Positions 15,909-19,950 of a stretch of 64,000 bases of DNA are shown piece by piece. Each line of letters starts with the position of its first letter. The first letter of the stretch is position 1. Location: NCBI RefSeq assembly GCF_055900595.2, contig NZ_CM148325.1. The stretch is one strand, 5' to 3'. The notes beneath the pieces are model-generated. The model was not told the DNA's origin and did no database searches. It saw only the letters and a list, made by a program, of their open reading frames with translations. A program made the translations under genes and the position numbers.

Positions 15909-16185
15909 GTTTTCTCTTCCGCACAAGGTCAGGATTATTCTAAAAATGCGCCGTTTGCAGGTGAATCGACGCTCAGTCTCAGTATAAGGAAAAGCGCAGC
16001 GGACGGGCGAGTGGATTGCGCAACATGCGAGCATGATCCAGAGATTTCTGAAGCGGCAAAAGGATGTTCCATGTACATGACGAGCGGCTTGCGGTAAATT
16101 GTTGGCAAATTTTCCGGCGTAGCCCAAAACGCGCTGTCGTCAAGTCGTTAAGGGCGTGCCCTTCATCATCCGATCTGGAGTCAAA

Positions 16186-18177
16186 ATGTCCTCACGTAAA
16201 GAGCTTGCCAATGCTATTCGTGCGCTGAGCATGGACGCAGTACAGAAAGCCAAATCCGGTCACCCGGGTGCCCCTATGGGTATGGCTGACATTGCCGAAG
16301 TCCTGTGGCGTGATTTCCTGAAACACAACCCGCAGAATCCGTCCTGGGCTGACCGTGACCGCTTCGTGCTGTCCAACGGCCACGGCTCCATGCTGATCTA
16401 CAGCCTGCTGCACCTCACCGGTTACGATCTGCCGATGGAAGAACTGAAAAACTTCCGTCAGCTGCACTCTAAAACTCCGGGTCACCCGGAAGTGGGTTAC
16501 ACCGCAGGTGTAGAAACCACCACCGGTCCGCTGGGTCAGGGTATTGCCAACGCAGTCGGTATGGCGATTGCAGAAAAAACGCTGGCGGCGCAGTTTAACC
16601 GTCCGGGCCACGACATCGTCGACCACTACACCTACGCCTTCATGGGCGACGGCTGCATGATGGAAGGCATCTCCCACGAAGTTTGCTCTCTGGCGGGTAC
16701 GCTGAAGCTGGGTAAACTGATTGCGTTCTACGATGACAACGGTATTTCTATCGATGGTCACGTTGAAGGCTGGTTTACCGACGACACCGCAATGCGTTTC
16801 GAAGCTTACGGCTGGCACGTTATTCGCGATATCGACGGTCATGACGCGGCATCCATCAAACGCGCAGTAGAAGAAGCGCGCGCAGTGACTGACAAACCGT
16901 CCCTGCTGATGTGCAAAACCATCATCGGTTTCGGTTCCCCGAACAAAGCCGGTACCCACGACTCCCACGGTGCGCCGCTGGGCGACGCTGAAATTGCCCT
17001 GACCCGCGAACAGCTGGGCTGGAAATACGCGCCGTTCGAAATCCCGTCTGAAATCTATGCTCAGTGGGATGCGAAAGAAGCAGGCCAGGCGAAAGAATTC
17101 GCATGGAACGAGAAATTCGCTGCTTACGCGAAAGCTTATCCGCAGGAAGCTGCTGAATTTACCCGCCGTATGAAAGGCGAAATGCCGTCTGACTTCGATG
17201 CCAAAGCGAAAGAATTCATCGCTAAACTGCAGGCTAATCCGGCGAAAATCGCCAGCCGTAAAGCGTCTCAGAATGCGATTGAAGCGTTCGGCCCGCTGTT
17301 GCCGGAATTCCTCGGCGGCTCTGCTGACCTGGCACCGTCTAACCTGACCCTGTGGTCTGGTTCTAAAGCAATCAACGAAGATGCTGCGGGTAATTACATC
17401 CACTACGGTGTTCGCGAGTTCGGTATGACCGCGATTGCTAACGGTATCTCCCTGCACGGTGGCTTCCTGCCGTACACCTCCACCTTCCTGATGTTCGTGG
17501 AATACGCACGTAACGCCGTACGTATGGCTGCGCTGATGAAACAGCGTCAGGTGATGGTTTACACCCACGACTCCATCGGTCTGGGCGAAGATGGCCCGAC
17601 TCACCAGCCGGTAGAGCAGGTCGCTTCTCTGCGCGTGACCCCGAACATGTCCACATGGCGTCCGTGTGACCAGGTTGAATCCGCGGTCGCGTGGAAATAC
17701 GGCGTTGAGCGTCAGGACGGCCCGACTGCGCTTATCCTCTCCCGTCAGAACCTGGCGCAGCAGGAACGTACTGAAGAGCAGCTGGCAAACATCGCGCGCG
17801 GTGGTTATGTGCTGAAAGACTGTGCCGGTCAGCCGGAACTGATCTTCATCGCTACCGGTTCTGAAGTTGAACTGGCGGTTGCTGCCTACGAAAAACTGAC
17901 TGCTGAAGGCGTGAAAGCGCGCGTGGTTTCCATGCCGTCTACCGACGCATTCGACAAGCAGGATGCGGCTTACCGTGAGTCTGTACTGCCGAAAGCGGTT
18001 ACTGCACGCGTTGCGGTGGAAGCTGGCATTGCTGACTACTGGTACAAGTATGTTGGCCTGAACGGTGCTATCGTCGGCATGACCACCTTCGGTGAATCTG
18101 CTCCGGCAGAGCTGCTGTTTGAAGAGTTCGGCTTCACCGTTGACAACGTTGTTGCGAAAGCAAAAGAACTGCTGTAA
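16186..18177 (+). CDS. tktA: transketolase 1 (663 aa)
   Basis: Track ORF trimmed 10 codons to [35 protein letters not shown]... Confidence 0.96.
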
Positions 18178-18194
18178 TCGGTAAGATGCTTTGT

Positions 18195-18222
18195 GAGAAG
18201 GGCCGCGAAAGCGGCCCTTTTT
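18195..18222. terminator. bidirectional terminator shared by tktA and the convergent SPFH gene
   Basis: agggccgcgaaagcggccct then ttttttt on the + strand; the SPFH stop codon abuts the T-run on the other strand. Confidence 0.7.
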
Positions 18223-19131
18223 TTACTTAGTAGAGATAAACGGAACTGTACTGCCGGGGATCATGGTATCGGGTAGCTTACCGTCCCAACGCTCAGCAGT
18301 GGTGAGGGCAACAAGTCCGGGATTATCCCGCAGAGCTTCACCGCGCAGGCGGATCGCTTCTGCTTCAGCCGCACTTTTTAAACGAATAGTTTCAGCCTCT
18401 GCCGCGCCTCTTACGCGAATAGTCTCAGCTTCTGCTTTGGCTGCCGCCAGTTTACTGTCTGCTTCTGCCTGGGCCTGAGTTACCGCTATTTGCGCCTGGA
18501 TTTTCTCTGTTTCCAGATTTTGCTTACGTGTGGCAATGGCGACTTCTGCTTTCATTCGATCTTCAATCGATTTTTCATAAGCGTCAGAAAAATCAATATT
18601 TTCAATCTGGACACCATCAATCACCACCGGGCCAACAACGGCTTTACGCATTGCATTTTGCAGATCCTGAACCAGTTTTGTACGATCCTGTACCGCGCTG
18701 ATGGCGGTATATTGGCCGAAAACGTTCTCCAGTTGAGTTGGCAACTGACGGACAATCAGACGATCTTTTAATGCTTCAATGGTGTTGTAGGTGGTATAAA
18801 CCGCGCCTGCTTCTGAAGGTTTAATGTGGAAGCTGACTGATACTGTCATTTGTGCCGGTTGCTGGTCGCGGCTGTAGGCCTGTAATCCCTGATAAACCAC
18901 AGCCTGATTACGCGTGGAAATTTTCTCTACGCTTTCCATAAAAGGGATCTTAAAACCCAGACCCGGCTCGGCAACTTTTACGATTTTTCCGTAGCGCAGC
19001 AAAATGCCGCGTTCACCTTCATTAACGGTGTAATACGAGAGAAATGGCAGCACAACCACGGTAATCACGCCAATGGCGATAGCAATAGATTTTTGTGGGC
19101 GAAATGAGGTTATTGAAACAGGTGCTTTCAT
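18223..19131 (-). CDS. SPFH/band-7 (prohibitin/HflC-like) membrane protein, 302 aa; not part of the K-12 tktA-cmtB arrangement
   Basis: aaggaag RBS 7 nt upstream of the ATG; N-terminal TM segment (IAIAIGVITVVVLPFLSYY), SPFH-like core (NEGERGILLRYGKI...), C-terminal Ala/Glu-rich 11-residue repeats. Confidence 0.8.
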   Translation of the reverse strand: MKAPVSITSFRPQKSIAIAIGVITVVVLPFLSYYTVNEGERGILLRYGKIVKVAEPGLGFKIPFMESVEKISTRNQAVVYQGLQAYSRDQQPAQMTVSVSFHIKPSEAGAVYTTYNTIEALKDRLIVRQLPTQLENVFGQYTAISAVQDRTKLVQDLQNAMRKAVVGPVVIDGVQIENIDFSDAYEKSIEDRMKAEVAIATRKQNLETEKIQAQIAVTQAQAEADSKLAAAKAEAETIRVRGAAEAETIRLKSAAEAEAIRLRGEALRDNPGLVALTTAERWDGKLPDTMIPGSTVPFISTK

Positions 19132-19506
19132 GAGAATCTTCCTTGAGTAAAGCGTGGGAATATGTCACATGAGGTGAGGAGAAAACAGCCAACAGGTGAG
19201 AATTCAGAATCTATAAAGGGGGAGAGCGAAAAACATCGGCTAAAAAAGTATGTTTTCGAACATTCAATAGATAAATAGAGATATGCATCACAAATACATA
19301 GGCAGATAAAACATTGGTTTTGTGATAAACATAGCAAACACAAACTTGACTTTATAAGTATAAATTTCATGTTGTTGTTATTTAACATTTTATTATTTTG
19401 GTTCATGTTTTTTTTCTTCTCGCGTGCCCAATTGCTTTCATTAAATCGCACGAGTATTTTATTTTTACCGCCGGACGGTACCCTAAAAATAAAATAAGGA
19501 TAATTT

Positions 19507-19950
19507 ATGCGGCTTATTGATTATTTTCCAGAATCATCAATCTCAGTTATACATTCAGCAAAAGATTGGCAGGAAGCTATCAATTTCTCGATGGCATCAT
19601 TGCTGGATAAAAACTATATCAGCGAGAATTACATTCAGGCTATTAAAGATTCCACCATTAACAATGGCCCTTATTATATTCTCGCACCAGGCGTGGCAAT
19701 GCCTCATGCGCGACCGGAATGTGGGGCGCTTAAAACCGGGATGTCTTTGACGTTACTTAAACCAGGCGTTTATTTTCCGGGGAATGACGAACCGATTAAA
19801 TTACTTATCGGTCTTTCTGCTGCCGATGCCGATTCGCACATTGGTGCTATTCAGGCGTTAAGTGAATTGCTGTGCGAAGAAGAAATACTTGAACAACTCT
19901 TAACTGCAACATCAGAAAAACAATTAGCGGACATTATCAGCCGCGAATAA
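19507..19950 (+). CDS. cmtB: PTS mannitol-family EIIA component, cryptic (147 aa)
   Basis: MRLIDYFPESSISVIHSAKDWQEAINFSMASLLDKNYISENYIQAIKDSTINNGPYYILAPGVAMPHARPE... matches CmtB. Confidence 0.9.
   Translation: MRLIDYFPESSISVIHSAKDWQEAINFSMASLLDKNYISENYIQAIKDSTINNGPYYILAPGVAMPHARPECGALKTGMSLTLLKPGVYFPGNDEPIKLLIGLSAADADSHIGAIQALSELLCEEEILEQLLTATSEKQLADIISRE

Follow-up and report, generated by a model that had tools for sequence, protein, structure and literature searches.

A 33-bp repeat in a prohibitin-like SPFH gene of Escherichia coli as a probable wall-helix module with one old duplication

Known SPFH cages and variable repeats compared with the locus

In the cages formed by the SPFH proteins erlin and prohibitin, the long helices known as CC1 make up a sealed wall, and CC2 bends inward and forms a cap. 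The CC1 of erlin is 101 residues long and its cage is ~165 Å high, while the prohibitin cage is ~110 Å high. In flotillin, the wall helices follow an (A/G,E,A/G,E) pattern that lacks heptads, and charge clusters hold them together in a right-handed helical barrel. Here, we describe a repeat of 33 bp in an SPFH (Band 7) gene of Escherichia coli that lies in a stretch of 64,000 nucleotides from RefSeq assembly GCF_055900595.2 (contig NZ_CM148325.1), to which we refer as the window. The repeat is likely to represent an 11-residue structural module of CC1 combined with one old, fixed duplication on the Escherichia stem, and not a hypermutable tract or contingency locus. The A-E repeat motif was already known, as were the gene family and the architecture of the cages. 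What is added here is the dating of the duplication to the Escherichia stem and the observation that the CC1-spanning region changes in steps of 11 residues, an addition that is unsurprising to a structural biologist.

The product is an uncharacterized fifth SPFH protein of E. coli, a stand-alone protein of the prohibitin/HflC-like kind with a presumed role in the membrane. In E. coli strain 2013C-4282, where the locus is 99.9% identical, RefSeq annotates the product as a prohibitin family protein (WP_000646925.1), and residues 35 to 210 match the Pfam family Band_7 (PF01145) with 111.6 bits against a cut-off of 23.6. Scores for the more specific equivalog families fall far below their cut-offs: 60.5 against 134.4 bits for HflC (TIGR01932), 37.4 against 159.4 bits for HflK (TIGR01933), and 17.3 against 700 bits for FloT (NF058507). 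HflK and HflC of E. coli, which form an SPFH cage around FtsH (PDB 7vhp and 7wi3), are the best match in both sequence and fold (phmmer E=1e-13; Foldseek E=4.5e-17 over ~310 columns). HflC shares with the present protein an N-terminal helix, an SPFH domain, a long CC1, a short CC2, and a C-terminal tail in the same order. In contrast to the adjacent paralogous pair hflK-hflC, the gene described here stands alone between tkt and cmtB. No more than about a third of the complete E. coli genomes (1,830 of 5,426) carry it, and K-12 lacks it.

Eukaryotic prohibitin and erlin also share this domain order, with a sequence identity of only 15 to 20%, but their cages are hetero-oligomers of two paralogs, and only one gene is found at the present locus. 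The likeness to flotillin lies in the helix that follows the SPFH domain, which carries a recurrent A-E-A-E pattern without heptads; AEAE opens each of the three repeat units u1 to u3 described below. The two differ in that the wall comprises 186 residues in flotillin and 87 here. Right-handed packing is known for flotillin; the model of the present protein is that of a monomer.

Variable-number tandem repeats (VNTRs) and contingency loci of bacterial surface proteins are built from near-identical in-frame repeat units and show copy-number polymorphism at the level of isolates. The present repeat resembles them in having a period that is a multiple of three, which keeps the frame upon gain or loss of a unit, and in one in-register deletion allele. 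It differs from them in that its units have diverged (55 to 79% identity), form no array for Tandem Repeats Finder (TRF), and show no polymorphism among E. coli isolates. The locus is not phase- or size-variable; it is unfit as a typing marker and does not represent antigenic variation.

Repeat units within the predicted wall helix

Four consecutive 11-residue units, u0 to u3, are encoded near the 3' end of the gene (Table 1). A preliminary description of the window had reported three tandem 33-bp repeats at 18339-18470 that encode AEAETIRVRGA, AEAETIRLKSA, and AEAEAIRLRGE. These peptides are encoded as claimed on the minus, coding strand (u1, u2, and u3, respectively), but the reported span, at 132 nt, has the length of four units instead of three, and it is shifted by 2 nt. 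The accompanying plus-strand motif, cgaatagtYtcagcYtctgc, is present but occurs only twice, at 18383-18402 and 18416-18435. The 33-bp periodicity itself is borne out, as self-identity at a lag of 33 nt reaches 0.63 to 0.67, compared with 0.16 to 0.39 at other in-frame lags. The value of 0.67 is the highest of the 64-kb window, and all 16 positions that reach it fall at 18334-18376, indicating a periodicity beyond chance.

At the DNA level, u1 and u2 are identical at 26/33 positions (79%), u1 and u3 at 20/33 (61%), and u2 and u3 at 18/33 (55%). TRF reported no array of period 33 in 17500-19800 even at its lowest threshold (minimum score 30), so the divergence of the units puts them outside what this program accepts as a tandem repeat in DNA. 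A repeat search returned imperfect families of 17 to 22 nt at 33-nt spacing and nothing more, and the unit sequences from E. coli contain no exact repeat longer than 8 nt at this spacing. We estimated the DNA identity expected from the protein alone by resampling synonymous codons under a codon-usage model derived from four genes. The observed 26/33 for u1 and u2 exceeds the expectation of 21.1 ± 1.6 (P=0.004), and the resampling detected no excess for u1-u3 or u2-u3. Only u1 and u2 therefore keep a trace of duplication at the DNA level.

These results bear on the possibility that no duplication took place, in which case the 33-bp periodicity would be a by-product of selection for 11-residue packing and the extra residues would have arisen otherwise. 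The lack of DNA likeness of u3 to u1 and u2 beyond the protein-based expectation is compatible with such an origin, but the excess synonymous identity of u1 and u2 speaks against it. The helix as a whole supplies a further argument in its favor. The hydropathy of CC1 shows a hendecad-type periodicity (11/18/22 rather than 7/14), with autocorrelations of 0.37, 0.36, and 0.32 at lags 11, 18, and 22 and of 0.03 and -0.08 at lags 7 and 14. The family-mean profile behaves alike (0.45, 0.45, and 0.33 at lags 11, 18, and 22; 0.08 at lag 7), and the 11/18/22 periodicity extends to the part of CC1 outside u1 to u3, as a by-product of packing would predict. We return to this alternative below with the evidence from homologs.

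An AlphaFold2 monomer model built on 149 sequences (mean pLDDT, a per-residue confidence measure, of 92) predicts the order of elements of a cage subunit: N-terminal helix, SPFH domain, long CC1, CC2, and tail. In this model, u0 to u3 all lie inside the single CC1 helix of residues 183 to 269. Foldseek aligned the model over its full length to cage subunits in solved structures, namely, HflC, erlin, prohibitin, QmcA, stomatin, flotillin, and the major vault protein, and by the model CC1 would correspond to the wall helix of SPFH cages. The tail is extended and non-helical with low model confidence, and W282, G284, and P287 within it are invariant across the 149 sequences. The 11-residue pattern of CC1 reads A-E-A-E-x-I-R-L-x-G-x. 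When it is drawn on a wheel that distributes 11 residues over three turns, one face collects A, T, and L (positions 1, 5, and 8), a roughly opposite face collects A, I, and G/S (positions 3, 6, and 10), and the charged pairs E2/R9 and E4/R7 occupy the faces between these two small/hydrophobic seams. Such a two-seam pattern fits a helix that would contact one neighbor on its left and another on its right, by analogy with the solved cages.

Origin, stability, and length steps of the repeat region

The preliminary description had named an identical repeat number in all homologs as an outcome that would speak against expansion and contraction; close homologs instead carry mostly either three units or two. 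In a protein search, three units (75 residues from QNL to AERW) were found in every Escherichia, Shigella, and E. albertii sequence with an intact repeat region, apart from three single deletion alleles and a number of entries that are truncated or frameshifted. Two units (64 residues) are present in nearly all of the remaining close homologs that contain both anchor motifs, including those of Kluyvera, Klebsiella, Phytobacter, Kosakonia, Mixta, Erwinia, Salmonella, Pseudomonas, and Arenimonas. A scan of 80 named organisms with one genome per species gave only two anchor distances from Phe181 to Trp282 and none other. The distance is 101 residues in 21 genomes (E. coli, E. whittamii, Escherichia sp. 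MOD1, and E. albertii, but also Yersinia and several Rhizobiales) and 90 residues in 59 (Pseudocitrobacter, Enterobacter, Mixta, Buttiauxella, Shewanella, Pseudomonas, and others). Homologs of 299, 298, 297, 295, and 292 residues have the standard 75-residue repeat region, except for two entries with small deletions (P0006 and P0008), so their differences in length lie outside the repeat. The 311-residue entry P0015, which a MAFFT alignment had made look like a two-unit form, is a frameshifted product that diverges after the run of five A's (A5) in u2.

The close homologs with two units from outside Escherichia lack exactly 11 residues at the position of u2, and the alignment is equally compatible with u1 or u2 as the added copy. 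The nearest outgroup of Escherichia is Pseudocitrobacter, with 85% identity. Its first unit is identical to u1 and to u2 at 26/33 positions each and to u3 at 19/33, indicating that u1 and u2 both descend from one ancestral unit; u3 matches the last unit of Pseudocitrobacter and that of Kluyvera at 28/33 each. A length gap to the nearest orthologs of exactly one unit, located exactly at the repeat, and the equal similarity of u1 and u2 to a single outgroup unit are hard to reconcile with extra residues that arose by some route other than duplication. Together with the synonymous excess, they leave that explanation very improbable.

When E. coli, E. albertii, and E. whittamii are compared, orthologous units are identical at 29 to 32 of 33 positions, whereas the paralogous u1 and u2 within a gene share 23 to 26. 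The amino acid differences between u1 and u2 (V/L, R/K, and G/S) are also the same in all three species. Both observations indicate that the duplication is older than the split of these species, and that the two units have evolved independently under purifying selection since then. The same comparison addresses ongoing gene conversion (concerted evolution), which would keep the units alike without a single old duplication. In its favor, u1 and u2 are slightly more alike in E. coli (26/33) and in E. whittamii (25/33) than they are in E. albertii (23/33). Units under conversion would not, however, be closer to their orthologs in other species than to their paralogs in the same gene, nor would the three amino acid differences be identical in all Escherichia species examined, and we regard gene conversion as highly unlikely. 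Third units were gained independently in Yersinia (IGAEKIKLMGA/AEAENIRLMGA), in Rhizobium alvei relative to Rhizobium sp. G21, within the Brucella/Ensifer group, and in entries P0097/P0099. Adjacent units at the three-unit loci studied in DNA share at most 26/33 positions and none are near-identical, indicating that the gains at all of those loci are old.

We assessed present-day stability by comparing a 132-nt query that contains all four units with the complete E. coli genomes by BLAST. A loss of 33 bp would reduce coverage to at most ~75%, and a gain would produce a second overlapping place. All 1,829 genomes that contain the region showed exactly one matching place with at least 80% of the query covered; no gain or loss of 33 bp was thus detected in these genomes by coverage and place counts. 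At least 80% of the whole gene is covered in 1,818 of the 1,830 genomes, and among the matches listed, 28 of 30 span exactly 909 nt. A single E. albertii allele (P0013; 280 aa) lacks exactly u0 and u1 through a 66-bp in-register deletion. This deletion is flanked by 9-nt direct repeats, two copies of GGCAGAAGC, and was seen in two datasets. Two further in-frame deletions, of 4 aa in P0006 and 6 aa in P0008, are single entries and affect the same Ala-rich stretch.

These data allow an evaluation of the idea, raised in the preliminary description, that the repeat can expand or contract by slippage or recombination and give length variants among isolates. In its evolutionary sense the idea holds, since homologs differ by whole units. 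As a claim of present-day instability it is not supported: no length variation among isolates was found in the 1,829 E. coli genomes, and one 66-bp deletion allele exists in E. albertii. A tract of the contingency type that is active today would account for this allele, for the small deletions in P0006 and P0008, and for copy numbers that differ among homologs. It is contradicted by the absence of any gain or loss in E. coli, by the divergence of the units with their short exact repeats and lack of a TRF array, and by the fact that each unit keeps its own amino acid sequence across Escherichia species. We consider this alternative largely refuted already, with very little chance of being correct.

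Three observations concern disruptions of the gene in the repeat region. In E. coli FDAARGOS_1260 (L010), the gene is truncated at 18447/18448 inside the repeat, but the cause is an IS1A-associated deletion and not a repeat-mediated one. With this deletion, cmtB, cmtA, and the first part of yggP are lost as well, and this genome is the one short match in the 132-nt search. The A5 run of u2 lies at 18377-18381, and P0015 (7 member sequences) frameshifts directly after it. In one genome (NZ_CP113503.1), the gene copy spans 910 nt instead of 909. The frameshift and the 910-nt copy may be homopolymer slips or sequencing errors.

Under the preferred reading of a structural module with one old duplication, an ancestral unit AEAETIRL[KR]GA was duplicated in frame, by 33 bp, on the Escherichia stem. 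CC1 would thereby have been lengthened by 11 residues, which amounts to three turns or ~16 Å along the helix axis. The two copies then diverged at synonymous and three amino acid positions to become u1 and u2, each of which is conserved across Escherichia species. CC1 helices may pack side by side into the wall of a domed cage, as they do in solved SPFH complexes, and an insertion of 11 residues would leave both lateral seams and the downstream cap in phase. Given this constraint and the occasional microhomology between units, length changes would be expected mostly in steps of 11. Changes in unit number would be rare events of slippage or microhomology-mediated recombination that are subsequently fixed or lost, and the repeat would be stable today because the units have diverged.

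To characterize the wider subfamily, we searched representatives, clustered at 50% identity, exhaustively with HMMER and counted the residues from Phe181 to Trp282. The main motif-matched lengths were 79 (16 sequences), 90 (56), 101 (18), and 112 residues (3). Counted by alignment columns, 129 of 149 sequences have 90+11k residues, and among the sequences of non-modal length, 42/62 fall on this series, compared with ~1 in 11 expected at random. An approximate count by Fitch parsimony on a rough neighbor-joining tree of the 149-column domain yielded ~53 inferred length changes, of which 33 are multiples of 11, followed by changes of ±7 (7 changes) and ±4 (3 changes). The result is a small structural rule: the wall helix of this SPFH subfamily changes length mainly in steps of 11 residues, or three turns. 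No earlier statement of the 11-residue length steps or of the dating of the duplication to the Escherichia stem was found in the searchable literature, which is weak evidence of novelty as the library is incomplete. Searches that combined SPFH with hendecad, or with periodicity, coiled-coil, and repeat, returned no papers, and among the papers listed for hendecad with flotillin, prohibitin, or stomatin, none contained the word hendecad.

Several points weigh against the reading of module plus duplication. Cage assembly, two-seam packing, a change in height, and any functional consequence are proposed by analogy with solved complexes, and the model is of a monomer only. The excess identity of u1 and u2 rests on 33 nt and on a codon-usage model from four genes. 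Stability in E. coli is derived from BLAST summary counts rather than from lengths in each genome, and the genomes are not phylogenetically independent. The two datasets that contain the E. albertii deletion could represent the same strain. Roughly one inferred length change in three is not a multiple of 11, and the parsimony count on the quick neighbor-joining tree probably overcounts independent events.

A further proposal is that the number of units in CC1 serves as an evolvable ruler of cage height, with unit gains and losses that are adaptive and not merely tolerated. If so, such changes would tune the space inside the cage, for example, to the size of its clients or the geometry of the envelope. 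The events concerned would be those by which Escherichia, Yersinia, Rhizobiales, and other lineages gained units, and the ~30 inferred changes of 11 or its multiples among ~150 representatives. We consider this proposal unlikely. Ortholog pairs with two and three units (Pseudocitrobacter or Kluyvera and Escherichia, respectively) nonetheless provide natural material on the relation between CC1 length and cage dimensions.

Feature coordinates, gene neighborhood, and minor observations

The positions of the gene, the elements of its product, and the repeat units are listed in Table 1.

Table 1. The SPFH gene, its predicted protein elements, and its repeat units in the window
Feature	Position	Strand	Remarks
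SPFH/Band 7 gene	18223-19131	-	909-nt open reading frame (ORF), 302 aa + stop
N-terminal hydrophobic helix, residues 12-32	19036-19098	-	Presumed membrane anchor; AlphaFold2; aligns with HflC N-terminal transmembrane region
SPFH (Band 7) domain, residues 35-210	18502-19029	-	Pfam envelope; beta/alpha elements 33-181 in model
CC1, residues 183-269	18325-18585	-	Unbroken 87-residue helix; AlphaFold2
u0, AEADSKLAAAK, residues 222-232	18436-18468	-	Degenerate; in all close homologs; 18/33 nt identical to u1
u1, AEAETIRVRGA, residues 233-243	18403-18435	-	One of two Escherichia-duplicated copies
u2, AEAETIRLKSA, residues 244-254	18370-18402	-	Other duplicated copy; holds A5 run
u3, AEAEAIRLRGE, residues 255-265	18337-18369	-	Ancestral last unit
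CC2 short helix, residues 272-281	18289-18318	-	Past N-P-G break; AlphaFold2; architecture as in erlin, prohibitin
C-terminal tail, residues 282-302	18226-18288	-	Conserved W-D/N-G-x-L-P ... P-F motif; alignment

The gene is flanked by the transketolase gene tkt (16156-18177, plus strand), with which it is convergent, and by cmtB/cmtA (from 19507, plus strand), with cmtB being divergent from it; it is a single gene without a paired paralog at the locus. In K-12 MG1655 (L009, 4332-4644), 1,246 nt of the window (18179-19424) are replaced by 230 nt without detectable similarity, and the flanks of the replaced stretch (the end of tktA and the region upstream of cmtB) are 97 to 98% identical to the window. 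The SPFH genes of Kluyvera and E. albertii also adjoin tkt, indicating that they are orthologs. We had considered a recently acquired island, but this shared synteny speaks for an ancestral origin of the gene and its later loss from K-12-like lineages. Homologs of the subfamily are found on plasmids, namely, Pseudomonas putida pKF715A (L084) and a Kosakonia plasmid (P0057), and one E. coli copy is plasmid-borne as well, suggesting that the family is occasionally mobile.

A strong GC hairpin (GGGCCGC GAAA GCGGCCC) followed by seven T's is located at 18200-18224, just past tkt. The 55-nt segment 18178-18232 folds with a minimum free energy of -25.9 kcal/mol (z = -4.7), and the stop codon of the SPFH gene, which converges on tkt, lies at 18223-18225 and overlaps the T run. 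A consensus terminator scan missed this hairpin, possibly because A's upstream of it pair with the T run. The scan of 18100-19600 placed two terminator-like matches inside the SPFH gene, a number at chance level, and a consensus promoter scan of the same interval yielded no sigma-70-like site.

An Asn/Lys-rich ORF of 107 aa at 19128-19451 on the minus strand lies upstream of the SPFH gene and overlaps its start codon; it looks like a chance ORF of the intergenic spacer. The mechanically called transketolase ORF begins with GTG and encodes 673 aa, compared with 663 aa in the RefSeq annotation of the near-identical strain, which probably places the correct start codon 10 codons farther downstream. 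Two small in-frame insertions, both of which duplicate some of the neighboring sequence, map to the SPFH domain near query residues 81 to 93. Shigella flexneri entry P0003 has 7 extra residues, SRDQQPATSNQQPAQM, and the E. albertii type strain NBRC 107761 (P0005/L007) carries a 3-aa duplication, QGLQGL.

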